Under the pieces are notes generated by a model that was not told the DNA's origin, did not search any database, and worked only from the letters and a program-made list of their open reading frames with translations. 64,000 nt of DNA from Candidatus Woesearchaeota archaeon (lineage in GTDB: Archaea > Nanobdellota > Nanobdellia > CAYMVK01 > CAYYFB01). Where the stretch lies: the NCBI GenBank assembly GCA_964471255.1, contig CAYYFB010000003.1, positions 359-64,358 on the forward strand, given 5' to 3'. Shown here piece after piece: positions 3,586 through 62,120 of the stretch. Every line of letters starts with the position of its first letter. Position 1 is the first letter of the stretch. Position numbers and translations under genes: made by a program.

Positions 3586-4209
3586 ATGGACAGTAAAGGT
3601 ATTATGGAGAAAAAAGAAAAAATTGTTGCTAACTCAGTTAGTTTAAAAATAGAAATGTCCTCTTCTAATCCTTTCTTAACCGAGTTTATAGAGGAAATAA
3701 GAAGAACTTTTGGTAATTCAATTAAAATTGACACAATTGAAAATCTCGAAATGGAAAAACCATACAGAATAAGCGTTTATGTTGATGATAAGAACATCCT
3801 GCATTTTTTAGGAATCCCAAAGAAAAGGGAAGTAGAAATGTTCAAGGATATCTTAGAAATTTTTTTAAACAGAGATAAATACCTTAATAAGAAAATATCG
3901 AGAATTTTTAACAAGATAAATGAACATGTTTGGTTAACGGTGTTTATAAGTCCTCTATGCCCTTACTGTCCTATTGCGGTAAGAATGTTGAGTAAGATAT
4001 CGCTTAGTTCTGGTAGTTTGGCTAAGGTTTTCGTTATCGACAGCATGGACAATCCAGATCTTGTTGAAAAGTACAAAATAAGAGTTGTCCCCACGATTTT
4101 TATAACAAAAGATCCTATAGAAAAGGCAAAAAGATATGATATTTTGGTTGGCGCATTTCCTGAGGAGTTTATTCTGGAGCGGATTGTTAAATTTTTCCTA
4201 GGTATATAA
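3586..4209 (+). CDS. Thioredoxin-fold protein, glutaredoxin/protein-disulfide-oxidoreductase-like
   Basis: SPLCPYCPIAVRML contains a CxxC active site, and VVPTIFI is the cis-Pro region. Only one CxxC is present in 207 aa. Confidence 0.7.
   Translation: MDSKGIMEKKEKIVANSVSLKIEMSSSNPFLTEFIEEIRRTFGNSIKIDTIENLEMEKPYRISVYVDDKNILHFLGIPKKREVEMFKDILEIFLNRDKYLNKKISRIFNKINEHVWLTVFISPLCPYCPIAVRMLSKISLSSGSLAKVFVIDSMDNPDLVEKYKIRVVPTIFITKDPIEKAKRYDILVGAFPEEFILERIVKFFLGI
4174..4182 (+). repeat. CTGGAGCGG word, copy 1
   Basis: Exact 9-mer, in-frame Leu-Glu-Arg (FILERIV) of the thioredoxin-fold gene. Confidence 0.95.
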
Positions 4210-5785
4210 GAACTCCTAGAAAGCAAAGGAAAAGCAGAAGTGCCAAAGGTATTGTCAAAAGCTTCTTCGCTGTCTCTTTTCTGACTTCGATAATTTTAGG
4301 AGAAAGTTTTGTATGTTTTATCTCTGAAGGTAAGGAGCTCATCTTAAGTGCAAGTTTAGCAAAATATATCGCAGCATTTTTATCTTCCTCCCATAATACG
4401 CTCGAATATTCTTTATAAAGAAGAGCTAGAATTGGGTAATAGTTCTGAGATACGTAAAATCTTATCCTTTTGTCCAATAGTTCCTGATATTTCTCAAATA
4501 CTTTCTCTTTATCTTCTAAGTTCTCGAGAGCAAGTTCAGATAGTACTTCCGCTTCTTTGGAGAGAAAAAGGGCCCTTACAGCTTTTCCCCTTTCTAACAG
4601 TTCTCTAGCTTTTTCTATTTTAGATTTGGCCTCTGCTACTGGACCTCCAGTATAGTAAGTGGAGGCGTAAATAACTCCTATTTCTGCTCTTTCTATAGCG
4701 TCTCTAGAACACCCTATATATTGATCTTCATCAAACACCCACTTGCCTGGAGGTATAAGGGACAGCCAAGCTTCAGCAGATATTATTCTTGCCTTCGCTC
4801 CAGCTATTTTTTCAATATCTCTAGACTCAACTCCCTCGTTAAGACTCTCATTCGCTTCATAGAGTCTATCTAGAAAGATGAAAACAAGCTCTAAAGAATT
4901 TGGATCATAGGTGAGGCGTTTTTTAGATAGATTCTTTATTTCATTTCTCATCTCCTGAACTTCATTTTCTATATTTTCTATATTCTCCTCTAAGTACTTT
5001 GTGTAAAGCTCTTTGATGGCTCTCACGCAATAACTTGCTGCAGAGTAATACTTGCCTTTCTTTTCCAGTTCTCGTGCTTTTTTAAGCAAATCTGATGGCT
5101 TTTTAGCGAGGTACTCAAAAGATTTAGCTTTTTTACATACCATAACCTCGGCTTTCTTTATCAGATTATTTATTTGTGTAAGGTTTATTTTTTGAATTTT
5201 TATTTGGATTTCTCTCTCCGTGAAGTATTTATAAGCATCCAAGGCATCCTTTACTTCTATTATCTTTGTCTTTTCCTCTATACTTTCTATCTCCTCTGTT
5301 TTTTCACCGTATGGTATTAAGAACAAAGATGCATACTCTTTTGCTGCCAGATACTTTTCTTTTATTCCCCCTACTGGACCAATTGACCAATCAGGATTTA
5401 TTGTGCCTGTCATTATGATGTCTTTCCTCAAAGTGGTATTGGATAAAAGGCCCATAGCAAGAACTGTCATAGCCGCTCCAGCACTGGGTCCTCCTACTAT
5501 TTCCCCCCTTCCCTCAATTCTGAAAAGGAAATCGTACCTACTACAATTAACATTAAAAATCTCGCATGCAACACGAACTGCAACACGAGCTGAGGCTTGG
5601 GTATCTACCTTAGTGAGGGGGCTTGTGCTTATGTAAACATTTCCATTTCCTGGGAGTATTTTAAGAGATAAATTTGCAATTATTCCTTTACCATTATGAA
5701 CCCCTACAATATATATCCAATCTTCGGAAGAAAATACAAAACAAAGGAAAAGAGGTATAGTTAAGACAAACCTACTTAATTTCAT
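4187..5785 (-). CDS. Exported, C-terminally anchored Lon-like (S16) serine protease with a long helical domain
   Basis: N-terminal signal-like MKLSRFVLTIPLFLCFVFS. The Lon proteolytic core is present: GGPSAGAAMTVLAMGLL (Ser) and GPVGGIKEKYLAA (Lys). An alpha-helical region of about 330 aa and a C-terminal TM follow. Confidence 0.7.
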   Translation of the reverse strand: MKLSRFVLTIPLFLCFVFSSEDWIYIVGVHNGKGIIANLSLKILPGNGNVYISTSPLTKVDTQASARVAVRVACEIFNVNCSRYDFLFRIEGRGEIVGGPSAGAAMTVLAMGLLSNTTLRKDIIMTGTINPDWSIGPVGGIKEKYLAAKEYASLFLIPYGEKTEEIESIEEKTKIIEVKDALDAYKYFTEREIQIKIQKINLTQINNLIKKAEVMVCKKAKSFEYLAKKPSDLLKKARELEKKGKYYSAASYCVRAIKELYTKYLEENIENIENEVQEMRNEIKNLSKKRLTYDPNSLELVFIFLDRLYEANESLNEGVESRDIEKIAGAKARIISAEAWLSLIPPGKWVFDEDQYIGCSRDAIERAEIGVIYASTYYTGGPVAEAKSKIEKARELLERGKAVRALFLSKEAEVLSELALENLEDKEKVFEKYQELLDKRIRFYVSQNYYPILALLYKEYSSVLWEEDKNAAIYFAKLALKMSSLPSEIKHTKLSPKIIEVRKETAKKLLTIPLALLLFLCFLGVLIYLGKI

Positions 5786-5794
5786 TATAATATT

Positions 5795-7777
5795 GTGAGG
5801 TTACTGAAGATAAAGTTGGAAGGAATAAGATCCCACCTTAATACTGAAATAGAATTTGGAGAAGGAATTAATGTTTTCATTGGGAACACCGGAAGTGGAA
5901 AGACATCAGTGCTAATTGGCATTGAATTTGCACTTTTTGGGAGAGATTGCGGGAGGGATTTTGCAGAAATACTTTCTTGGAGGAAAAATAGGGGGCGGGT
6001 GATTCTCACAATAGAACATAGAGGAGATATCTATACAATAATACGCGGTCTATTAAGGGAAAAATCTTCAATAAGAACAGATCCTACAACATTAAAAATT
6101 CTAAAAAATGGAAGACTTTTCTTTTCTACCGAAAGAGCTAGGGAATTTAATGAAAAAATAAAAGAAATACTCGGTTTCCCGAAAAAGATAAATCCCATGC
6201 TTCTTTTTGAAACTATCTGTTACTCAAAACAAGACGAAATAAGAAAACTTTTGGAGCTAAGTAAGGAAGAAAGACAGGTTTATATAGACCGTGCTCTCTT
6301 TCTTGATAAATACAGAAAGATTTGGGAGGAAATGAAAGATATAATAGAATATTTTGAGAAAAAACTCGAAAAATTTAACACATTAATCGAATTAAAGAAG
6401 GAGTATGTCAATAAGCTACAAAAGATATCCTCAGAATTGGAAAGCTCAAAGAAAGAGTTAAAAATGATAAATGAAACTTATGAAGATCTTGCTAAAAAAT
6501 TTGGAGAAGTAAGTAGTAATTTAAAAGAAATAAAATACAAACTTGAAACAATAAGAAAGGACTTGGAATTATTGACAAGATTGGAAGAAAGGAAAAAAAT
6601 TTTGATAAGTGAGATCTTTTCTTTGGAAAAAGAGCTTGAGAATTTAAAGGGGCAAATTAAAAAAATTGAAGAGGTCGATATAGAAGAAATAAATCAGCTT
6701 AAAAAGGAATTAGAAAGGGTCAAAAACGAATTGTTTTCTCTAAATGCAAGAAAAGGGGAACTTGAAAAAACAATAAAAAACCTTGGAGGCCTTAAAGGGA
6801 GAAAGTGCCCAATTTGTCAAAGAATAATTAGCAAAGAATTAGCAGATAACCTAATTAATAATGCAAAAACAGAATTGGAGGAATTGCTAGTAAAAATAAA
6901 TGAGTTAGAAGAAAAAGCAAGATCACTTCAAGAATCTTTGAAAGAAAAGGAAGAGAAGCTATCTATTTACCTAGAAAATAAATCTTTAAGAAAAATGGTG
7001 GAGAATGTGAAATCAAAACTATCAATAAAAAGAAAGGAGCTTGAAACAATAGAAGAAAAGCTTCTGGAACTTTCTAAATTTAAAGAAATGGAAATGGATT
7101 TAAAGAAAAAACTTTCAGAGTTAGAACAAGAATATTCGCTATATCTCACAGAATTGAAAGAATTAGAAGGAAAAAGAAAAGCTCTTAGGGAGAAATCAAT
7201 ATTTCTTGAAAAAGAAAAATCTTATTTAGAGGAAAAAATCACTGAAATAGAAAAAAGTGAGAGAAAAAAAGAAAAATTAGAAAAATTAATCTATACCTTA
7301 AAGAATCTAAGAGAGGAAATAAGAAAAATAAGAGAAATCGTAAGAGATAGATTCCTAGATAGTTTTGGGGAGGAATTTGTAAAGTGGTTTAGGCAATTAA
7401 GGAAAGATAGTGAATACTCGGTTTCGATTGGAAAGGATTACGAACCTATAATTTACGACTATGAAGGAAAAGAGGTCTCTTTAAGGAATCTGTCTGGAGG
7501 AGAGAAAACATCAGTTGCTCTGGCCTACCGCCTTGCTCTCTCAAGTGTTGCATCCGAATTGCTTGGAATGCAAACTCTTGGTCTTTTTATTCTAGATGAG
7601 CCTACCACAGGTCTTGATAGTGACGATATAAAAAATCTGGTTGAGGTGATTCAAAATCTAAAGCTTCCACAGTGTATAATTGTTACACATTCAAGGGAGC
7701 TTAAAGAGGCTGCAGATTATAAATTTCTTGTTTATAAAGGACCTGATGGAAGCAAGGTTATTTCTCTAGAGGACTGA
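5795..7777 (+). CDS. rad50: Rad50-like SMC ATPase (short form, GTG start)
   Basis: Walker A GNTGSGKTS, long coiled coil, central CPICQR zinc-hook CxxC, signature LSGGEKTSVALAYRLAL and Walker B LFILDEPTTGLD. Confidence 0.8.
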   Translation: MRLLKIKLEGIRSHLNTEIEFGEGINVFIGNTGSGKTSVLIGIEFALFGRDCGRDFAEILSWRKNRGRVILTIEHRGDIYTIIRGLLREKSSIRTDPTTLKILKNGRLFFSTERAREFNEKIKEILGFPKKINPMLLFETICYSKQDEIRKLLELSKEERQVYIDRALFLDKYRKIWEEMKDIIEYFEKKLEKFNTLIELKKEYVNKLQKISSELESSKKELKMINETYEDLAKKFGEVSSNLKEIKYKLETIRKDLELLTRLEERKKILISEIFSLEKELENLKGQIKKIEEVDIEEINQLKKELERVKNELFSLNARKGELEKTIKNLGGLKGRKCPICQRIISKELADNLINNAKTELEELLVKINELEEKARSLQESLKEKEEKLSIYLENKSLRKMVENVKSKLSIKRKELETIEEKLLELSKFKEMEMDLKKKLSELEQEYSLYLTELKELEGKRKALREKSIFLEKEKSYLEEKITEIEKSERKKEKLEKLIYTLKNLREEIRKIREIVRDRFLDSFGEEFVKWFRQLRKDSEYSVSIGKDYEPIIYDYEGKEVSLRNLSGGEKTSVALAYRLALSSVASELLGMQTLGLFILDEPTTGLDSDDIKNLVEVIQNLKLPQCIIVTHSRELKEAADYKFLVYKGPDGSKVISLED

Positions 7778-52600: not shown

Positions 52601-53536
52601 TTATATCCATTCAGAAGGAATGGAAGATTTTTCACAAATTGTTTCTCTTAAAGATTCTGGTTTTTCATATTTTTGAGCTAAACTCCTCAATTTTCTTCTT
52701 ACTCTATTAGCCAATCTATCTTTATATTGACGCACTTCTATAGGCCAGAGTCCTAGGTTCTTTCTTTTTGAGAGAGTAACCACCGGAACTAGCCTTCTTT
52801 TTCTCTCAACGAACTGTACAATTCCTATCCCAGGAATAAATGTTGGTCTTACTTCCTTGCTCTCCACATAGGTAAAAGTAATACTCACATCTCTTCTTAA
52901 CTTCCTAATAATTCTCCTTATTCTCTCTATCAACTTAGGTAGTAACTTAACATACTCCTGTATTTCCGTATAAAGGCTCTTTAATTTTTCCAAAAAATCT
53001 ATAATGTACTTCCCGTAACCAAACAATTCTAAAACGGCTTTAATATTTTGTTTTGCCTCCAATATTTCTGGGAATTTTTCTTCAGCATCTTGAACTATTC
53101 CTTCTAAAGTTAAAACCATGTTTCCTAACCCTCTTTTCTCCAGAAAATCAGTCATGTCCCTAAAACTATCTAAAAGCTCTTGCATTAGCCTTTTATAATA
53201 GATAATCTCATCTAGTCCCCTTTCAAGCCGATCAGCAACCCAGCAGGAGGCACTTATTCTATCCAGATGATAATAAGACATCCTTTTTATTGTTTCTCCA
53301 AGATTTGTCCAGATTTTCTGGAGCGGCTCAAAATAACCTCTATATAAAACATGATAAATCCAAAATAGATCCTGAATGATCCAAATTGTATATCCTCTAA
53401 ATTCATTTTTACGTGAAAGGAAATTATCATCTAAAATCTCTTTCAAATGCCTCAATCCGTTTTTAAGTGAGGTGGTTCTTACCCTAAGGAAATCTAGAAG
53501 ATCTCTTCGGTTAGAAATATAGGAGCCTATCTCCAT
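52601..53536 (-). CDS. Hypothetical helical, R/K-rich protein
   Basis: 311-aa ORF with no recognisable motif. Confidence 0.4.
   Translation of the reverse strand: MEIGSYISNRRDLLDFLRVRTTSLKNGLRHLKEILDDNFLSRKNEFRGYTIWIIQDLFWIYHVLYRGYFEPLQKIWTNLGETIKRMSYYHLDRISASCWVADRLERGLDEIIYYKRLMQELLDSFRDMTDFLEKRGLGNMVLTLEGIVQDAEEKFPEILEAKQNIKAVLELFGYGKYIIDFLEKLKSLYTEIQEYVKLLPKLIERIRRIIRKLRRDVSITFTYVESKEVRPTFIPGIGIVQFVERKRRLVPVVTLSKRKNLGLWPIEVRQYKDRLANRVRRKLRSLAQKYEKPESLRETICEKSSIPSEWI
53318..53326 (+). repeat. CTGGAGCGG word, copy 17
   Basis: Exact 9-mer, antisense to the 52601-53536 gene, where the sense strand reads P-L-Q. Confidence 0.95.
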
Positions 53537-53711
53537 AACATTTATTGCTCTTATTTCCTATATATTCTTTACTAATAAGTAGTAATAACTTTATGAAGGG
53601 GTTAGCAATCCGGTTGAATTCTCATATATTATCCATTCTCTCACATTGCATTCCTTTTAGAGTTCTGCCATTTAGGTTGTGTTTGGAGGAAAAATAGTTA
53701 GTTGTGAGTTC

Positions 53712-53921
53712 TTATACAAAAGATAAAAGAGTAATAGCTGATAGAAACACCAGTAAAAGCGTGAGGAATCTTATTCTTTTCTCTAGATGGAAATCACGAA
53801 ACACTGTTGTCTTATCTAATAAACTTGCTATGCTTAGAATCAAAAGTACTAAAAGAAGGAAAGAGAAGAGCCCCCTCTTCAAGTAAGGGATTTGTTTATA
53901 TATAAAAGATATTATAGACAT
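53712..53921 (-). CDS. Possible small two-TM membrane protein at the 3' end of the MoxR operon
   Basis: 69-aa ORF with two hydrophobic helices. It is on the same strand as the DUF58 gene and overlaps its stop by 26 nt. There is no other support. Confidence 0.3.
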   Translation of the reverse strand: MSIISFIYKQIPYLKRGLFSFLLLVLLILSIASLLDKTTVFRDFHLEKRIRFLTLLLVFLSAITLLSFV

Positions 53922-55551
53922 ATCTCTCTATTTTTTGAGGGTTTATAAGTAAATATCTTGCCCCTCTAACTTTGCTTGGAGATAGAATTAAATATTTAAG
54001 TTTTTTTGCCAATATTTTCTCTGTTAGGAACTTTGATAAGTGAGGTGGAAGATTAGGGGTTAAAAATAAAACTTTACAAGTTTTTCTTAGAGATCTAAAC
54101 AAATTAGAATAATTCTTTTTAAAAACCTGCTCCCTATTCCAATAAAATAGCCTTATTTTCTTTCTGAGAATCCCAGAGTAAAAAAGATAAGAAGAAAATG
54201 CTATACCTCCATCTTTCAATCTTCCTTTTATTATTTCGGCCTCCTTTCCTAAACAATCTTTAAGTATGGAAAGTGACGCTTTTGGACTTATTATTTCCCC
54301 AAACTTCTCCCCTTTTAGGAGAAAAGATAACAGTTCCTTCTTGTCTTTTAAAAATGGGGAAAGAGAGTAAGAGTATCTCACAACAGCTACTGCTATCTCA
54401 ATATCCCTTCTTGAAAAAGTTTCAATAAAAACTCTTGCAAACTTAAAAAAAGCGTCTTCTAAGTCTTTTCTTATTTTTGGTTCGGTAAGATCAAGAACCA
54501 AGAGATATCTATCCTCTGCATGTGCGTAAAACTTTTTTGTATACAATTTTCCCGCCTTTGCCAATCCTTTCCACCATATCCTCGAAATTGGATCCCCAGG
54601 GGTATATCTTCCTATTTCAGCAAAGTCAAGAGAACTTCCATAGGCCTTCTTTATAAGGGCACCTGTCTCTCTAGGTATTAGGGGCATCTTAATAGGTAAC
54701 CTCAGTAATAATTTCCTCTTTAGTTTAGGAAGAACATATATACTAACAGGAGTTGAAGTTGCCCTATAAAGAACTGTAGAAAAGAAAGGCAAGGTAACTA
54801 TCTCCACTTTTACCACATCTAGTGAATAAAATCCTAATCTTTTCGGGAAAAATTCAAATTCTAGTCTAATTTTCGTTGAAAAAATGTTTTCTTTCCAACT
54901 ATGAAGCTTCAACTCTGGATGGAGAGGACAAACATATACATTAAACAAAGGAAAAGGGGAGGAAATATTCAAGTAAAACTTTGTGCTTGTTTCCGTTGAA
55001 ATTGTTTTCTTTTCAGTTTTTCCCTCAATTTTTGTTCTTTTAGCGAAGAAAATGGACAAAATATGATATATATAGCCAGCTAAAGGGGCGGCGACAATCA
55101 GAGAGGAAAGACTCAAATCTCCAAACAAAGAAATAACAATATTAACTAGGCTTCTTAATGCTGAAAAGCGATTTGGGATTCTTTCTACAAATGTGCTAAG
55201 ATAAAAAGGAAGGGGAGGAAGTATTAAAACGATGCCAGAAATGAAAACTACAAAGAAAATAGCAAAACCAACTTTTGGTTTTATAGGAGAGTATATCATT
55301 TTTTCTACCCACCACCTTGGTAGCAAGAAGAAAGACAGTATCTTCCTTAGAAGTGAGAAAAGTGATGAATATCCAGCTGCAAGAAAGATATAAGGGAGAA
55401 GGATAATAAATATTACCCAAATTAAATCAATATAAGGGTTGTTTACTCTTACTTTTATCAAAAAATTTCTATAAAAGGGAAAAAAGGCCAAGAAGAAAAA
55501 AATACAAGCTAAAATAATATCCCACTTAATCCATTTAATTAATTCTCTCAA
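53896..55551 (-). CDS. DUF58-domain membrane protein (MoxR partner)
   Basis: Several N-terminal TMs, then FAEIGRYTPGDPISRIWWKGLAKAGKLYTKKF, the DUF58 signature. Four-nucleotide overlap with moxR. Confidence 0.75.
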   Translation of the reverse strand: MRELIKWIKWDIILACIFFFLAFFPFYRNFLIKVRVNNPYIDLIWVIFIILLPYIFLAAGYSSLFSLLRKILSFFLLPRWWVEKMIYSPIKPKVGFAIFFVVFISGIVLILPPLPFYLSTFVERIPNRFSALRSLVNIVISLFGDLSLSSLIVAAPLAGYIYHILSIFFAKRTKIEGKTEKKTISTETSTKFYLNISSPFPLFNVYVCPLHPELKLHSWKENIFSTKIRLEFEFFPKRLGFYSLDVVKVEIVTLPFFSTVLYRATSTPVSIYVLPKLKRKLLLRLPIKMPLIPRETGALIKKAYGSSLDFAEIGRYTPGDPISRIWWKGLAKAGKLYTKKFYAHAEDRYLLVLDLTEPKIRKDLEDAFFKFARVFIETFSRRDIEIAVAVVRYSYSLSPFLKDKKELLSFLLKGEKFGEIISPKASLSILKDCLGKEAEIIKGRLKDGGIAFSSYLFYSGILRKKIRLFYWNREQVFKKNYSNLFRSLRKTCKVLFLTPNLPPHLSKFLTEKILAKKLKYLILSPSKVRGARYLLINPQKIERYVYNIFYI

Positions 55552-56480
55552 GGGGCATCAACTTTGGAAAGAACATCAATTATTATATCTTTGTTGCTTA
55601 TTCCCTCGGTTTCGTATTCGGGCTTTATTCCTATCCTGTGCTGAAGTATCCAAACAGCATATTTGTTAACATCTGAAGGCTTAACAAAGTTTCTTCCCTC
55701 AATGAGGGCAAGGGCTCTGGATACATTCATGAGAGCTATGGATGCTCTAGGACTTGGGCCCCAGACAACTTCGGGTCTCTCCCTTACCGAACAAACTATG
55801 TCAACGATATATTTTTTAGCTGCCGGTGAAATAAAGACGTTTTTTAACATCTCTGAATATCTAAGCACATCCTCTTTAGACAAAATGGGCTCTATTTTTC
55901 CTCCCGTCTTTAATTTTCTTTCTAAAATTCTAAGTTCATCTGTCTTGTTTGGATAGTTTAGATCTATTTTAAAGAGGAACCTATCTAGCTGGGCTTCGGG
56001 AAGAGGATATGTTCCCTCTTGCTCAATAGGGTTTTGAGTTGCAATTACCATAAAGGGCTCTTCAAGTCTATAAGTCACACCTTCAATAGTTACTTGCCGC
56101 TCTTCCATTGCCTCCAAAAGCGCTGATTGGGTCTTTGGAGGAGCCCTATTTATTTCATCAGCTAAGAGAATATTTGTAAAAATAGGCCCAAGTCTTACTT
56201 TAAAGGTAGCCCCTCTCAAATCATAAATTGTAGTCCCAATAATATCCGAAGGGAGTAAATCTGGGGTAAATTGGATTCTTCTAAATTTAGCATTAATTAA
56301 TCTTGAAAAGAGCTTTACTAAACTTGTTTTAGCTATCCCTGGTGGTCCTTCAAGTAAAACATGACCTTTACAAATTAAAGCGACGAACAAAGCCTTTACT
56401 ATTTCTTCATATCCAACAATGTATTTGGAAACCTCTTTAATTAATTTCTCAAGTTTAGGTATCATATTTTTGATAAACAA
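55548..56480 (-). CDS. moxR: MoxR-family AAA+ ATPase
   Basis: Walker A GPPGIAKTS, Walker B/sensor LLADEINRAPPKTQSALLEAMEE, VIATQNP and LDRF. Confidence 0.9.
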   Translation of the reverse strand: MFIKNMIPKLEKLIKEVSKYIVGYEEIVKALFVALICKGHVLLEGPPGIAKTSLVKLFSRLINAKFRRIQFTPDLLPSDIIGTTIYDLRGATFKVRLGPIFTNILLADEINRAPPKTQSALLEAMEERQVTIEGVTYRLEEPFMVIATQNPIEQEGTYPLPEAQLDRFLFKIDLNYPNKTDELRILERKLKTGGKIEPILSKEDVLRYSEMLKNVFISPAAKKYIVDIVCSVRERPEVVWGPSPRASIALMNVSRALALIEGRNFVKPSDVNKYAVWILQHRIGIKPEYETEGISNKDIIIDVLSKVDAP

Positions 56481-57529
56481 ATAAGTGAAAATAGAACCAC
56501 AAGCATAAGCAAGAGAGGGAAGAAAGAGGGAGAAAGTATTTTTTTAGCCAAAGTAGAAAGAATGTGTTTTCCAACCATTCCATAGATCCTAGAATAAAAT
56601 TCTCTTTGGATATTTGGATCTTTTATGAGTTTTTCTATCTCTTTTATTTGTCCACTCTCAATTAGATATCTAAGATAGTCCCTTATCATTTCCGCTAAAA
56701 GCCTTTTATCAAGTTTAGAAAGAAATTCTAGAAGAAGTTTCCAATATTCGTATTTTGACAAAATTTCCATTAAAGCATCTTTGAATTGTTTATTTTTCCA
56801 TAATTTTTCCCCCTCTCTCAATGATTTCTCGATATATTTTCTTACCGCCGGATCATTAAGAATCTTAGATAACTCAAGTAGCTTGCTTACATCCTTCTCT
56901 TTAAGTAGGGAGGAGAGAAGACTAAAATACTGGAAATACCCAAGTCTTCTATTAGCTAGGTTTTCATAAATATTTAGGAGATCATAGGCGGGATTTAGCT
57001 CATAATGTGAAAAGACAAATTCATCCAGTAAACTCGCTTTTTTTCTATCGCTTTCAGCTTTCATCAGAGTTTTGTAAAAGGAGGGGGATTCTTCCCTTAT
57101 TTTATAAAGGAAATAATCTGCAAAGGACTCATATGGATATTTTACTTTCCCTTCCTTGACTAGATAAGAATCAAAGTTGGGATAAAGCCATCTCCCATAG
57201 TTTATCTCATAAACTAAGTTCTCAATTTCTTTCCCGCCAATTACATATCCATAATCATAAAGAAAGGAAGATTTTGACAAGCGTGAGCCAAATTTTCTCC
57301 CTTCCCAATTAATCTCTAAAACTTTCTTGCCATCCTTTAAGTAATAAAGGGGATCCCCTTCTTCTGTAAGCAAAGGAAAAATATTCTTTTTTCTCATGTC
57401 CTCCAGAACATCCGGGGAAAAAATGGGGTGTTTTACACTACTATTGTCAGAAAATGGAAGAAATACAAGAGTAGAGAAACTAGGACTTAAGAAAAAGATT
57501 AAACAGGTCATTAACAATTTGCTTTTCAT
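56462..57529 (-). CDS. Exported, C-terminally anchored hypothetical protein
   Basis: Signal-like N-terminus MKSKLLMTCLIFFLSPSFS, a mixed beta then helical body and a C-terminal TM. Confidence 0.45.
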   Translation of the reverse strand: MKSKLLMTCLIFFLSPSFSTLVFLPFSDNSSVKHPIFSPDVLEDMRKKNIFPLLTEEGDPLYYLKDGKKVLEINWEGRKFGSRLSKSSFLYDYGYVIGGKEIENLVYEINYGRWLYPNFDSYLVKEGKVKYPYESFADYFLYKIREESPSFYKTLMKAESDRKKASLLDEFVFSHYELNPAYDLLNIYENLANRRLGYFQYFSLLSSLLKEKDVSKLLELSKILNDPAVRKYIEKSLREGEKLWKNKQFKDALMEILSKYEYWKLLLEFLSKLDKRLLAEMIRDYLRYLIESGQIKEIEKLIKDPNIQREFYSRIYGMVGKHILSTLAKKILSPSFFPLLLMLVVLFSLICLSKI

Positions 57530-57938
57530 TAGGGATCTCCCTTTTTCCGTATATTTTCATCTCATAAAGCTCAAAAATCTTTTCTAAAACCTTCCTTATC
57601 TTTCCTTTCGTTTTTTCTAGAGCTTTTTTTCTAGCCAAGTATCCTTTTCCGTCTTTTTCATCTAAGATTCCATCTATTCTTAATTTTTGAATGCAGAAAG
57701 AATAGAGGTTTTCCACGTTATCTACCTTATTAGGTTTTTTCTCAAGTTTCCAAGAAAGAGAGGAAACCAGGCTTTTAAGATGTTTAAATGGGAAAGATAT
57801 CTTTCTTTTCTTTTTTGATAAAAACAAAACCAGATTAAAGAACACAAATAGGAATATTAATATATTGAATAGGAAAGCAAGGAAAATAAGTGGATTTTCT
57901 CTAGCCAAATACAAAAGAAGCAAAAATATCCTTTTCAT
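57480..57938 (-). CDS. N-terminally anchored small protein, DUF4129-like
   Basis: It has an N-terminal TM pair. The helical C-terminus ends ...VLEKIFELYEMKIYGKREIP, resembling the DUF4129 tail seen in MoxR/DUF58 operons. Support is weak. Confidence 0.35.
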   Translation of the reverse strand: MKRIFLLLLYLARENPLIFLAFLFNILIFLFVFFNLVLFLSKKKRKISFPFKHLKSLVSSLSWKLEKKPNKVDNVENLYSFCIQKLRIDGILDEKDGKGYLARKKALEKTKGKIRKVLEKIFELYEMKIYGKREIPNEKQIVNDLFNLFLKS

Positions 57939-57939
57939 T

Positions 57940-59805
57940 TTACATTATCCTTCTTAACATAATATATGCAATTAACCCCAATAAAGCTGAAAATGTTAAA
58001 AGCGCTGAAGCTACTTTTCTCGCTTTTTCACCCAAAACTACAACAGAAAAACTCCCTGTAATGTGTTTAGGGAAGTATCCCTCACCTACACATTCTATTA
58101 TGTATTCAACCCTGGCTGGGCTCTCAGCTGGGATTGAAAGATAATAAAATCCCTCTCTTTCCATCATTTTTGTTCTTTCTCTTTTTACAGCTCTTTTTGT
58201 AAGAGGATCATAATATTGCAATATAACAAAGCAAGAAACATTTGCCATTCTTCCTAATTTGTCTCTTACACTTATTTCAAAGTCTATCCTGTTCCCTATT
58301 TTATATTCTTTAGCTATTTTTGATCTTTCTCTTATTAAGAGCTCTACTTTGTTGACAAAAATTTTAAAAACCTTTCTGGAGCTTTTATACCCATATTTTT
58401 GGCAACTTACCTCCATGGGATACTCTCTTCCTCCAGCAGGAAAGTTTAGCTCTAAAGTTCCACCGCTAGTCAACGTGTAGCTTTTATCCAACCATTTTAC
58501 TTGGCATTCTCCTTCTATTTCTTGACCAGTTATGGTGTCTAGATACCTTATTTCCACTTCCTTCTTTTCAAAGGAATAAATAATGCGGGAAGGGATTTCA
58601 ATATCTATTCTAGTTGGTCTCTCTATTATTTCTATCCTTAAGTCTTTAAACTTGGGCTCATAGAAAGGCGCTGAACATTCTATCTCTATCCTATGCTTTC
58701 CTATTTCTAGATTCCTTATTTTTAGTCTATCATATATTGATGAAACTTTCCTTCCATCAATTTTTGCTTCACATGTTTTTCCAGTTATCTCCTCCCCACT
58801 ATCTTTTCTTACATATCTAAATTTGATCCACTCTCTTTCTCTGTAGTAAAATCTGGTTTTTGATGGGAATATTTCTATTTCAGTAGGAATTTTACTAATT
58901 GGCTCTATTACCTCTACTGTCGCTTTTTCATACTTAGGAGAGTAACAGACACTGTGTACTTTCAAATCCCCTAAAGCTAGAGGTAACTGCATTTTTACTC
59001 TTTCATTTGGATTTACTTTTCCGGAGAATACCTTTAAACTGTTAACCTCAGCATTTAGCTCACATTCCCCAGTCCATATCTTTTCGCCAGTTTCCTGAGA
59101 AATATATTCTGGAATTACTACTATCTCCTCCCCAGGATACTTTTTTCCCAGAATTTTAATATTAAGAAGAGTCCTCTCCTTTCTAACAAAGAGAAATGCC
59201 TCCGCGCTTGCTTCATCATATCCAGGTTTAAAGCAAGTTACTGAAACAATATAATCTCCTTCCTCCTCAGGAGCTGTAAGCAATATTTTCCCACTTCCCA
59301 TTACTCTCTTTTTCAGTATTGTGCTCCCATCTTTTTTTATTGACAGGTTGCAATCAGCTCCATAGATAATTTGAGGAGAAATATGAGCAGTGACTCTCTC
59401 TTGATATTTGATGTCAAGAACAAATTCATCTTTTGGCCTGAGATAGAAAATAGAAGGAGAGAGGACTAGAGATGTTTCGGTTCCCTTTACCTCAACATAA
59501 AAAGAGATCGTTTCATCATAACATGAAATTATGACCTCCCTTGTTCCATGTGTTCTGAATACTTTTTCAAAATAAGCGTATTCTGAATAAGGATACATTG
59601 AGGTTGTTTCCCCATCAATTGTAATTAAACAGCTTGGATGATCCACCAGATCACTCCCATTATAGACATACGCCCTTACAAACCATGTATATCCTGTGTA
59701 GACTTCGGGAGCATAGGAGGGATTAATACTTATTTGAGAGAATGTGAAGTGAAAGGATAAAAAGAAAATGGTTAAAAAAAGGGCTATTTTAAATCTCTTT
59801 TCCAT
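57940..59805 (-). CDS. Large exported surface protein with about six tandem beta-rich repeats, each bracketed by a Cys pair, and a C-terminal TM anchor
   Basis: It has a signal peptide MEKRFKIALFLTIFFLSFHFTFS. Repeats of about 95-100 aa each contain C...(40-55 aa)...C, for example GECELNAEV...VHSVCYSPKYE and KTCEAKIDG...IEIECSAPFYE. Confidence 0.55.
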   Translation of the reverse strand: MEKRFKIALFLTIFFLSFHFTFSQISINPSYAPEVYTGYTWFVRAYVYNGSDLVDHPSCLITIDGETTSMYPYSEYAYFEKVFRTHGTREVIISCYDETISFYVEVKGTETSLVLSPSIFYLRPKDEFVLDIKYQERVTAHISPQIIYGADCNLSIKKDGSTILKKRVMGSGKILLTAPEEEGDYIVSVTCFKPGYDEASAEAFLFVRKERTLLNIKILGKKYPGEEIVVIPEYISQETGEKIWTGECELNAEVNSLKVFSGKVNPNERVKMQLPLALGDLKVHSVCYSPKYEKATVEVIEPISKIPTEIEIFPSKTRFYYREREWIKFRYVRKDSGEEITGKTCEAKIDGRKVSSIYDRLKIRNLEIGKHRIEIECSAPFYEPKFKDLRIEIIERPTRIDIEIPSRIIYSFEKKEVEIRYLDTITGQEIEGECQVKWLDKSYTLTSGGTLELNFPAGGREYPMEVSCQKYGYKSSRKVFKIFVNKVELLIRERSKIAKEYKIGNRIDFEISVRDKLGRMANVSCFVILQYYDPLTKRAVKRERTKMMEREGFYYLSIPAESPARVEYIIECVGEGYFPKHITGSFSVVVLGEKARKVASALLTFSALLGLIAYIMLRRIM

Positions 59806-59849
59806 AGAAATATTACTGAGGGGAACTTAAGTAGCCTAAAAGTGCTTTA

Positions 59850-60836
59850 TTAATAAGAGTGCTGGAGATAATCTAAAAGATAAATTATGTTGTCAAACGA
59901 AAGGACAGGTATTTTTACTTTATTCCAAATTTCCTCTTTCATATTTACTTTAATAGGATGGCATTCCCTGTACACCCAGGTAATTCCTGGCAATTCTTTC
60001 TTCTCTTCTTTACATTGCATTTTCCAACCAACTTCATTTTCCTTCGGCATAATGAATATTGTTTTGTTCCCTTTCTTGCAAGCCTCTGCCTTCTCCATTA
60101 TCCCTCCGACTTTTCTAAGCTTCCCTAGATTATCTATTGCTCCAGTTATGCAAACATTATTTGGGAATTCCTTTCCTGTTAGGGTAAAATACAGGGCTGA
60201 GGTTAGGGCTGCTCCAATGCTTGGGCCATCTATTGTAACATTTTTCCCACTAAAACTTATATAAATATCATACTTTGAAGTATCTATTCCTAGAATGCCC
60301 TTAACAATATTCATCGACTCACTTATTGTCTCTTGAAGTTCTACCCCATATAATGGGCCAAGATTTACATAAAGCCTTCCCGCTCCAGGGCAAGCTCTAA
60401 TGGAAACATTAACTAAGACTCCCTTTCCATCCGAGACTGCTGGAGCTTGAAACTCATTTGAATAGCAAGCCTCTATTGTTTTATTTTTAATTATTCTTCC
60501 TACTCTCTGTATTTCTCTTTCGCAAATAACTATTTTTGACTTGCTATCATATACTAGCTTTAGTGCTCCAGCTTCCCTAATCCTACATGCCTCTTCTGAA
60601 TTCTTATCTAGAAATCTTGAACAAATTAGTGCTCCAGTATCTACATCATACACATTAACTTTCCCACTATAGCCCCTAGAAGAAATTATAAGGTAATTAT
60701 GCTTGCAATAAGCAAAAATTGCCTCCCTTTCTCCGCTTCCATATTTTGACATTCTTAGATTTTGATGGCCAAGAAAGAGCATTTCAAGCAAGGCTAAAAT
60801 TCCTAAGCAGATTACTCCTATTCTTACTAAATCCAT
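59850..60836 (-). CDS. N-terminally anchored Lon-like (S16) serine protease
   Basis: It has an N-terminal TM. TIDGPSIGAALTSALYFTLTG carries the Ser and ITGAIDNLGKLRKVGGIMEKAEA the Lys. It is a paralogue of the catalytic domain at 4187-5785. Confidence 0.65.
   Translation of the reverse strand: MDLVRIGVICLGILALLEMLFLGHQNLRMSKYGSGEREAIFAYCKHNYLIISSRGYSGKVNVYDVDTGALICSRFLDKNSEEACRIREAGALKLVYDSKSKIVICEREIQRVGRIIKNKTIEACYSNEFQAPAVSDGKGVLVNVSIRACPGAGRLYVNLGPLYGVELQETISESMNIVKGILGIDTSKYDIYISFSGKNVTIDGPSIGAALTSALYFTLTGKEFPNNVCITGAIDNLGKLRKVGGIMEKAEACKKGNKTIFIMPKENEVGWKMQCKEEKKELPGITWVYRECHPIKVNMKEEIWNKVKIPVLSFDNIIYLLDYLQHSY
60380..60388 (-). repeat. CTGGAGCGG word, copy 18
   Basis: Exact 9-mer on the sense strand of the S16 protease gene but out of frame (read as P-G-A-G). 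Confidence 0.95.
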
Positions 60837-60872
60837 AAAAAAAGATTAGGTATTATATTAAAGATAACCTAA

Positions 60873-62120
60873 CTAGAAATAATAGGGTTTAACATAATAA
60901 ACCAGGGTATTTTTATATCTCTCCATTTTGACTTCTCTTAAATTAATGACAAAGGCAGCCTTTGGTGAATATTCTTTTATAAAAAGCTTTAGTCCGGGGG
61001 TTATCTTGCTTTTCAGTGTCTTGACCTCTATTGGAATTAGTTCCCCTCCCTTCTCCAGAACAAAATCCACTTCTGTTTTTTCTTTTGTCCTCCAATATTT
61101 TATTTCAAAGTCTTTTAAATTTCTTCTTAACTCATTAAAGATAAAATTCTCAATTATTTCCCCTTTATTATATCTATCCTCAAAATCTCTAAAATCATTT
61201 AAAATAGAATTAGCTAACCCCTGATCCAGAAAATATATTTTTCTCGCTTTTTTTATCTCCTTAATTGGATTTCTAAAAAACGGCTTTACATTAAAGAAAA
61301 AATAAGTATACTTTAGAATTGAAAAGTAATTGGAAAGAGTCTTATAGGAAATTCCTAAATCTGAGGATGCAGAAGAAAGATTTAATACTTTTCCTATTTT
61401 ATAAACTAAGTATTTAGCAAAGCTCATAAACTTGTCAGTATCTCTTATATCAAAGAAAAAAGAAACATCCCTCTCTAAATAGGTCAATATAATGTTTTTA
61501 AGGATTTCTTTTTTTATCTTTTCATCCTCTTCTTTTGCAACAGCAGGCATTCCCCCAAATTTTAGATATTCACTAAATAGAGAGTAAAACTCCCTTTCGA
61601 AAGGAATTTCATATATATCTTTAGCTTCTCCAGAGATTGCTTCAATTAGAAACCTTTTTGCCTCCCTAATAAAGGGCAATAAATCCTTTGATTTCCAACT
61701 TATAAATTCCTCAAAATCTAGTGGAAATAACTCAAAATAAACGCATCTACCTACCAAATAGGCCCCTACTGGAACTTTAATATCAAAAGAGCCGGAGCCT
61801 GTAACCACAAGCTTTATTTTTTCTGAATAGAGATCATAAATTAGCTTCAATATTTTTCCTGCCTTCTTTGAATACTGGATTTCATCTATATACAAAATCT
61901 TGTTCTTTTGATACCTTCTTATAAATTCCTTTGGGTTTCTTTCGAATTCTCTTTTTACGTCCATATCTTCAAGCGTAATATATTTTCCTCCATATTTTTC
62001 TTCGAAATGTCTAAGTAAGGTTGTTTTTCCTGCCTGTCTTGGCCCTTTTATTACAATTATTTCTTTTCTCTTCATAAACTTATCTATTTCTTCCTCGAGC
62101 TTCCTTGGATAGTACTCCAT
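60873..62120 (-). CDS. AAA+ ATPase of the AAA_14/DUF4143 type
   Basis: IVIKGPRQAGKTTLL (Walker A) and LYIDEIQ (Walker B), plus a C-terminal DUF4143-like region ending with a restriction-endonuclease-like EVDFVLE...IPIEVK. Confidence 0.8.
   Translation of the reverse strand: MEYYPRKLEEEIDKFMKRKEIIVIKGPRQAGKTTLLRHFEEKYGGKYITLEDMDVKREFERNPKEFIRRYQKNKILYIDEIQYSKKAGKILKLIYDLYSEKIKLVVTGSGSFDIKVPVGAYLVGRCVYFELFPLDFEEFISWKSKDLLPFIREAKRFLIEAISGEAKDIYEIPFEREFYSLFSEYLKFGGMPAVAKEEDEKIKKEILKNIILTYLERDVSFFFDIRDTDKFMSFAKYLVYKIGKVLNLSSASSDLGISYKTLSNYFSILKYTYFFFNVKPFFRNPIKEIKKARKIYFLDQGLANSILNDFRDFEDRYNKGEIIENFIFNELRRNLKDFEIKYWRTKEKTEVDFVLEKGGELIPIEVKTLKSKITPGLKLFIKEYSPKAAFVINLREVKMERYKNTLVYYVKPYYF

Follow-up and report, generated by a model that had tools for sequence, protein, structure and literature searches.

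Gene content of the locus

The subject of this analysis is a group of seven adjacent genes, all on the minus strand, within a 64,000-nucleotide (nt) stretch of contig CAYYFB010000003.1, hereafter the window. The source genome, of a Candidatus Woesearchaeota archaeon, comes from hydrothermal-vent metagenomes and comprises 855 kb in 51 contigs at ~90% completeness. A first-pass annotation, made from the DNA letters without database searches, had read the group as a single membrane/surface operon built around a MoxR ATPase and a DUF58 protein, with a Lon-like protease as a further partner. All seven open reading frames (ORFs) were recovered exactly as it had delimited them, and the tight packing holds. 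Counted 5' to 3', Lon328 (59850-60836) is followed after 44 nt by Rep621 (57940-59805) and this after 1 nt by TM152 (57480-57938), while the remaining genes overlap: TM152 with P355 (56462-57529) by 50 nt, P355 with MoxR (55548-56480) by 19 nt, MoxR with DUF58L (53896-55551) by 4 nt and DUF58L with s69 (53712-53921) by 26 nt. Six of these genes, Rep621 through s69 (53712-59805), form a rare yet conserved membrane module of very small archaea of the symbiotic type; Lon328 is not conserved with it, and we hold both conclusions with high confidence. A crude hydropathy scan of the locus agrees with the topologies proposed earlier, including the claim that every component other than the ATPase is anchored or exported.

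The identity of the cytoplasmic ATPase is clear, with a match to AAA_3 of 219.6 bits (Pfam cut-off 27) and to AAA_lid_2 of 65.4 bits. Walker A is GPPGIAKT (residues 45-52) and LLADEINR is seen in the translation. By these sequence features (AAA_3, Walker A and B, AAA_lid_2) the protein is a MoxR-proper (MRP) AAA+ ATPase, as first annotated.

DUF58L, of 551 amino acids (aa), is a long DUF58 protein with 4-6 N-terminal transmembrane (TM) helices, a beta-rich middle, the DUF58 signature and a degenerate VWA-like domain. Its Pfam DUF58 (PF01882) match covers residues 315-357 and profile positions 4-46, and at 21.5 bits falls below the cut-off of 23.4; the orthologue in a related locus (L037) scores 22.7 bits. 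When a profile of four relatives' DUF58 proteins was run against the whole genome, DUF58L was the sole match (E 3.4e-6), and the profile aligned the signature motif GSSLDFAxxxxYxxGDPxSRIWWK, which is intact. The match is thus sub-threshold but, on profile and motif, real, and the naming of a multi-TM DUF58 protein stands despite the Pfam score. A strongly basic stretch, KRTKIEGKTEKK, follows the last TM helix, and the positive-inside rule would place the VWA-like DUF58 domain in the cytoplasm, alongside MoxR.

The first gene of the module, Rep621, encodes an exported protein with 12 cysteines in six pairs at a period of ~95 aa (59/95, 152/191, 248/287, 345/377, 434/468 and 525/572). Its AlphaFold2 (AF2) model has a mean predicted local distance difference test (pLDDT) score of 81 and places six beta-sandwich domains between a signal helix at the N-terminus and a TM helix near the C-terminus, after which the protein ends in a short basic tail. 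The top Foldseek matches are the macroglobulin (MG)-domain arrays of C3, C5, TEP1 and alpha-2-macroglobulin (E ~1e-17), and two of six Rep family members give weak MG2/A2M Pfam matches. Homologues occupy the same position in L117/L120, L118, L119, L121, L123 and L124 (E 1e-13 to 7e-34). Within the family alignment (A5) 10 of the 12 cysteines are invariant, the exception being the pair of an inserted domain, the window copy having one extra domain. The cysteine pairs and the model bear out the earlier description of a Cys-bracketed repeat protein with a C-terminal anchor, and judged by the model Rep621 is an MG/Ig-like stalk. An identity as alpha-2-macroglobulin itself was rejected, since the CxEQ thioester motif is absent and TED or CUB domains could not be accommodated in the AF2 model.

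TM152 (152 aa) is a small membrane protein of N-out/C-in topology with a helical tail. The basic stretch SKKKRK follows its TM helix and, by the positive-inside rule, the tail should be cytoplasmic. An ExP motif at the membrane is conserved in the family, and the tail ends in F..YE.K.YG; homologues were found in all nine aligned module loci (E 1e-14 to 1e-24), none of the nine members having a Pfam match. P355 (355 aa) is exported, with a signal peptide and a C-terminal TM anchor. Eighteen relatives at E<=1e-3 were found among 1.84 billion 50%-identity representatives, ~9 of them full length, and the nine-member family gave no supra-threshold Pfam match. Membership of DUF7674 was not accepted; one relative scored 26.2 bits against a cut-off of 27, over a short helical stretch only. 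Low-confidence AF2 secondary structure and weak HEAT-like matches suggest that helical repeats follow a small beta domain at the N-terminus. Because both Rep621 and P355 combine a signal peptide with a C-terminal anchor and a tail of two to four residues, the bulk of each protein is predicted to face outward.

The last gene, s69, had been listed as a possible 69-aa ORF with two TM helices. It is real, having an aligned counterpart after DUF58L in most related loci. ORFs of 55-69 aa with the same two-TM topology follow DUF58L in L037, L118, L119 and L123-L128, and those in L132-L135 were called by independent gene callers as well. P355, TM152 and s69 constitute three unannotated protein families.

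Conservation of the six-gene module

The order Rep621-TM152-P355-MoxR-DUF58L-s69 recurs in about ten other distinct archaeal contigs, in three of which the Rep gene is missing (syntenic loci L037, L117-L129 and L132-L135). Beyond the window the carriers are one metagenome-assembled genome labelled Aenigmatarchaeota (L037) and contigs from sediment or vent metagenomes. Word-indexed homologue searches with Lon328 and with P355 returned only the query, and the related loci came to light only when genome contigs were scanned with MoxR and metagenomes with the DUF58L profile. L037 was the top match (55% identity) of the MoxR scan across species-representative genomes, and the profile scan yielded 13 further contigs, each carrying a DUF58L orthologue. 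Look-ups of exact proteins then added three loci; L135 is new, and the other two are duplicates of the L127 contig.

L037 carries collinear homologues of four window genes and one small ORF. TM152 (E 9e-28), P355 (E 5e-15) and MoxR are matched in order, and DUF58L is ~30% identical over its full length to a 600-aa protein (E 8.5e-58). Just downstream lies a 69-aa two-TM ORF that is 26% identical to s69 in a near-ungapped alignment (one gap per sequence). In L117/L120, L118, L119, L121, L123 and L124, phmmer matches and gene maps give the order Rep, TM152-like, P355-like, MoxR and DUF58L. L117/L120 showed no small ORF downstream of DUF58L, the L121 contig stops at DUF58L, and in L121 two additional ORFs (a 1.3-kb gap) stand between MoxR and DUF58L. 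With this synteny the membrane/surface operon of the first-pass annotation stands for six of its genes, as does its view that Rep621 and TM152 are partners of the MoxR-DUF58 pair.

Protein identity among the module loci is 22-36%, with MoxR reaching 60% (against L119), and their content of guanine plus cytosine (GC) ranges from 0.34 to 0.56. In at least eight of nine aligned loci the TM152 and P355 genes overlap out of frame by 50 nt, the shared stretch being the end of the former and, in the latter, the start that encodes the signal peptide (57480-57529 in the window; equivalent positions in L037, L117-L124, L127 and L132). This count takes the Met-Lys/Arg start of the signal peptide as the start of P355, which is ambiguous in L117. 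Retention of the overlap suggests an obligatory translational coupling of the two genes. In four of the nine loci MoxR and DUF58L overlap by 4 nt.

Phylogenetically, the MoxR proteins of the module form one clade with a Shimodaira-Hasegawa-like approximate likelihood ratio test (SH-aLRT) support of 95, apart from the Bat-type MoxRs of genomes of the host's class. They group with archaeal MoxRs and away from those of the bacterial DUF4129-DUF4350-MoxR-DUF58 clusters. The order kept at such low identity and across such different GC content, the gene overlaps and the MoxR clade together are the grounds for treating the six genes as one unit. A minus-strand, tightly packed run is common in a genome of 855 kb, and here it extends from 52601 to 62120, taking in an AAA_14/DUF4143 ATPase (60873-62120) on one side and a 311-aa protein without an assigned family (52601-53536) on the other. 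Strand and packing alone therefore cannot delimit the operon, and chance adjacency in a compact genome, with no functional unit at all, would be compatible with them. That the order, the overlaps and the co-phylogeny persist at 22-36% identity in very different base composition contradicts such an explanation for the six-gene core, for which we regard it as extremely improbable; for Lon328 it is the default reading.

The module is atypical for the phylum of its host. MoxR orthologues (48-51% identity) were found in 9 of 40 class-level relatives, and their neighbours are mostly canonical Bat-type sets: a DUF58 protein of ~300 aa, BatA_N-VWA, VWA with GATase1_like, DUF7502, DUF7406-8 and large anchored Ig-like proteins. 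DUF58L itself had essentially no matches in the 40 relatives, and the long DUF58 was not found in 400 other sampled genomes of the phylum. The sole genome of the same family, G001, has a Bat-type locus (L030, 3-9767) composed of MoxR, a 311-aa DUF58 protein and a BatA-like VWA protein; the open frame before it exceeds 3,250 aa and continues past the end of the retrieved sequence. Different types of MoxR system accordingly occur in two members of a single family.

The Lon-like gene upstream of the module

Lon328 encodes a 328-aa S16 serine peptidase of the Lon type with an N-terminal anchor. Lon_C is matched at residues 139-271 with 50.6 bits (cut-off 21.1). By phmmer, Ser206 in DGPSIG and Lys249 in GGIMEK align to the active-site motifs of Lon protease domains with solved structures, DGPAAG and GGLKEK respectively. 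These residues we take to be the equivalents of the catalytic Ser679 and Lys722 of E. coli Lon, the aligned alanine presumably being the engineered Ser679Ala. The assignment as an N-anchored S16 Lon-like protease is therefore retained, and with the Ser-Lys dyad kept in the alignment the protease is apparently active. Pfam detects no AAA domain, and all NCBIfam Lon equivalogs score far under their cut-offs. Ten of its 11 cysteines lie beyond the N-terminal TM helix, and the protein has a Cys-rich insertion of ~100 aa; its location is probably extracytoplasmic.

In a full-length homologue search Lon328 was an orphan. Its best matches in the relatives' examined loci are exported proteins with an N-terminal Lon_C. 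A long extension usually follows; that of the full-length G006 protein looks helical from its sequence and terminates in a TM helix. The window itself holds a 537-aa paralogue of this kind (4187-5800, minus strand), with a signal peptide, an N-terminal Lon_C (GGPSAGAA, GGIKEK), a long and, from its sequence, probably helical extension and a C-terminal TM helix. Such proteins seem to constitute a family of exported Lon-like proteases, ATP-independent and common in DPANN archaea. Compared with the relatives and the 537-aa copy, Lon328 is a shortened paralogue with an extra Cys-rich insertion. SepM/YlbL-type S16 peptidases share with it an N-terminal anchor followed by Lon_C, the Ser-Lys dyad and the lack of AAA+. 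NCBIfam SepM_fam_S16 matches Lon328 at E 2.2e-6, but with 26.9 bits against a cut-off of 200. Lon328 differs from them in having no PDZ domain by Pfam and an extra Cys-rich insertion in its N-terminal part, and its nearest relatives are the exported Lon-like proteins of DPANN.

A seven-gene system in which anchored Lon328 is a functional partner of MoxR-DUF58, for example one that processes or matures Rep621 or P355, has several points in its favour. The gene is co-directional with Rep621 and just 44 nt away, and no obvious TATA box or T-rich terminator was seen in the spacer (a scan for bacterial sigma-70 promoters and terminators is uninformative for an archaeon). Its catalytic Ser and Lys are kept, the ten cysteines beyond the anchor suggest the same extracytoplasmic site as that of Rep621, and an exported PLD-like hydrolase stands at the equivalent upstream place in an Aenigmatarchaeota-like lineage. 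Comparison of the loci speaks against it. No Lon homologue occurs in any of the related module loci, and none lies beside MoxR in the MoxR loci of class-level relatives, the Bat-type locus of G001 included. Moreover, the gene upstream of Rep is divergent in L117/L120 and L119, which places the start of the conserved operon at Rep, and Lon328 has a TATA-like element of its own, TTTAATATAA, ~20-30 nt upstream of its ATG. The Lon-like gene of the L037 genome, which is short and encodes an N-terminal anchor (30% identity, E 7e-23), sits on a contig other than that of the module. We therefore consider a partnership of Lon328 with the module improbable. The proposal that a Lon-fold protease occupies a partner position is not borne out, and the neighbourhood comparison suggested with it has divided the locus, the six-gene core being syntenic but Lon328 absent from every related module locus; lack of synteny had been named in advance as an outcome that would refute the proposal. 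On these sequence comparisons Lon328 is a lineage-specific neighbour that landed beside the module in this lineage only.

The neighbours of the Lon-like gene in the L037 genome, named from their translations alone, are TatD-like, PAC2-like and SpoIIM-like; the gene divergently adjoins that for the SpoIIM-like membrane protein (L131, 2723-3550 on the plus strand and 1462-2445 on the minus strand). SpoIIM also adjoins the bacterial DUF4129-DUF4350-MoxR-DUF58 cluster of L107. The PLD-like (PLDc_2) gene of the Aenigmatarchaeota-like lineage encodes an exported, C-anchored protein and lies co-directionally just upstream of the module (L124, 4217-5446; L127, 5934-7181; L037, 6150-8243; L132, 5949-7196; L135, 6035-7279), in the place that Lon328 has 5' of Rep621 in the window. 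L124 holds both Rep and this gene. Its position could be due to lineage synteny or mark a slot for accessory hydrolases.

Relation to other MoxR systems and possible function

Comparison with described MoxR systems places the module best as a rare, divergent variant of MoxR/DUF58 envelope complexes, a reading that draws on collinear bacterial clusters, the topology of P355, the six-domain fold of Rep621 and a bifidobacterial precedent. Its closest archaeal counterpart was predicted by Makarova, Galperin and Koonin in 2015 (PMC5898192) as an arCOG01314 (DUF4350)-MoxR-vWA secretion or membrane-remodelling complex, in which arCOG01314 proteins, with a signal peptide and a C-terminal TM helix, form a complex with a MoxR ATPase, an Ig+vWA protein and Ig-like proteins of S-layer type. 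The module shares with this system, in one operon, a MoxR AAA+ ATPase, a beta-rich (possibly Ig-like) and vWA-like (DUF58) protein, Ig-like anchored surface proteins and small membrane proteins. P355 has the same signal-peptide and C-terminal-TM topology and holds the position of DUF4350 upstream of the ATPase. Set against Table 2 and Fig. 2 of PMC5898192, the composition of the operon agrees, whereas the DUF4350 ectodomain does not: P355 has no detectable DUF4350/flavodoxin-like domain and appears to have a small beta domain and helical repeats instead. Further differences are the 4-6 TM helices and degenerate metal ion-dependent adhesion site (MIDAS) of DUF58L, the Cys-bracketed MG-like array and the conserved two-TM micro-protein. 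The analogy makes a divergent variant of the arCOG01314 (DUF4350)/MoxR/vWA complex the best reading of the core.

Gene order is identical in bacterial DUF4129-DUF4350-MoxR-DUF58(-SpoIIM) clusters of Pyrinomonadaceae (L107), Syntrophobacterales (L056) and Caldilineaceae (L055), namely a TM protein with a C-terminal helical domain, an exported C-anchored protein, MoxR and a TM-anchored long DUF58 protein. Their MoxRs, 47-50% identical to that of the module, are the nearest bacterial ones by sequence; their DUF58 proteins have two TM helices, and in L107 a SpoIIM gene is next. The clusters differ from the module in the size of the TM protein (~360 aa, against 152 aa for TM152, which matches DUF4129 marginally) and in their DUF4350 protein, which P355 is not. 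The module also lacks an adjacent SpoIIM, and its MoxR groups elsewhere. In the Bifidobacterium PFNA operon pkb2-fn3-aaa-atp-duf58-tgm an FN3 adhesin gene adjoins MoxR-DUF58 (PMC6803598). Here too a gene for a surface adhesin of beta-sandwich repeats lies upstream of a MoxR of the MRP subfamily and DUF58 in one operon. The module differs in having neither the Ser/Thr kinase nor the transglutaminase, in its intervening genes and in its archaeal host.

With Bat-type MoxR-DUF58-BatA/BatB operons, to which the locus had initially been compared, the module shares MoxR directly before DUF58 and large anchored Ig-like proteins nearby. It has no BatA_N/VWA proteins, however, its DUF58 protein is long and multi-TM, and its MoxR clade is distinct. 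Pfam found no VWA domain in the locus, and a profile of three relatives' BatA-like proteins found no BatA-like VWA protein in the available assembly of the window's genome, so the comparison does not hold. This also bears on the view that the module has a role of the kind reported for Bat and other MoxR operons, in stress tolerance or general homeostasis of the envelope or membrane and not in displaying a surface structure, with Rep621 and P355 as structural components of the envelope and not clients. Such a role accords with MoxR phenotypes, which in sources such as PMC11834572 and PMC11432383 are mainly of a stress-tolerance or chaperone type, and with the dispensability of the Rep gene in one sub-lineage. 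It is at odds with the missing BatA/BatB-type proteins and with two outward-facing anchored proteins being coupled so tightly and specifically with the ATPase pair, and we judge it unlikely, less so than a partnership with Lon328.

Under the preferred reading, that of a coupled module acting on its own anchored proteins, a cytoplasmic MoxR hexamer would dock on the cytoplasmic VWA-like DUF58 domain of polytopic DUF58L, with the cytoplasmic tail of TM152 as an adaptor for MoxR-DUF58L. ATP-driven remodelling would then pass via the helices of DUF58L, TM152, s69 and the C-terminal anchors, and as a result the two outward-facing, tail-anchored proteins, the Rep621 stalk and P355, would be assembled, matured or switched. 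This accords with the general role of MoxR ATPases, which work with VWA partners to mature dedicated complexes, according to PMC9976466 and PMC3893208. Taken as a whole, the six-gene coupled module with this mechanism and with Lon328 as a neighbour is the explanation that we find reasonably probable. Its mechanistic part, comprising the topology, a physical complex, the direction of action and a role at the surface or in attachment, is put forward tentatively and has somewhat less than an even chance of being right.

Several results weigh against this reading. The Rep gene is absent from a sub-lineage consisting of L037, L127/L132 and L135, so Rep is not obligatory. The MIDAS of DUF58L is degenerate, DLTEP replacing DxSxS (LVLDLTEPK; LVLDMTNPN in L037), so the domain may not bind in the metal-dependent manner of a classical VWA. 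For P355 the AF2 model is unusable (pLDDT 46, from a nine-sequence alignment), and hhalign of P355 against DUF4350 (PF14258; A3 against A7) gave E 0.25 over 22 columns. For TM152, in which a DUF4129-like tail had been noted, comparison of the tail with eight bacterial DUF4129 (PF13559) proteins aligned the YG motif, ...YE.K.YG with ...FE.HWYG, but was marginal (hhalign E 0.013, probability 3.4%); TM152 may be DUF4129-like. With no homology between P355 and DUF4350 and this marginal match, the arCOG01314 comparison stands on position and topology. The spacer between Lon328 and Rep621, having no clear promoter of its own, may allow read-through or co-transcription from Lon328 into Rep621 in this genome only. 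The sequencing runs found to hold the window sequence are all DNA; RNA runs were sought and none was found.

A more far-reaching combination would make the core a self-contained, undescribed 'inside-out' surface machine of DPANN for contact with host cells, in which MoxR, via DUF58L, TM152 and s69, controls the assembly or conformation of Rep621 and P355, together with a 5' slot for swappable exported hydrolases, filled by the Lon-like protease here and by the PLD-like enzyme in the Aenigmatarchaeota-like lineage. That all of this should hold jointly we consider doubtful, about as improbable as Lon328 being a functional partner. The preferred reading, with Lon328 as a neighbour, has consequences of its own. 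Few prokaryotic ATPase modules that lack a known client are as widespread as MoxR-DUF58 pairs. In the present case the pair belongs to a reduced, tightly coupled set with just two outward-facing anchored proteins, in genomes of less than 1.3 Mb that have little room for dispensable genes, which makes Rep621 and P355 concrete candidate clients and the whole a compact system for structural or heterologous study. What is specific to it is the compact six-gene form, the P355, TM152 and s69 families and the retained 50-nt gene overlap. The protease link that gave the locus its unusual look is not conserved, and the record is corrected in this respect.

A final observation concerns the 9-mer CTGGAGCGG, which is present in 20 copies in the window against 0.07 expected from shuffles; an earlier count had given 18. 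A single copy lies in the locus, as first reported, at 60380-60388 (minus strand) within the Lon328 gene. Another falls at 5473-5481 (minus strand) in the gene of the 537-aa Lon-like paralogue. In both genes the word lies in Gly/Ala-rich coding motifs at non-homologous positions, encoding part of PGAG in Lon328 and AGAA of GPSAGAA in the paralogue.

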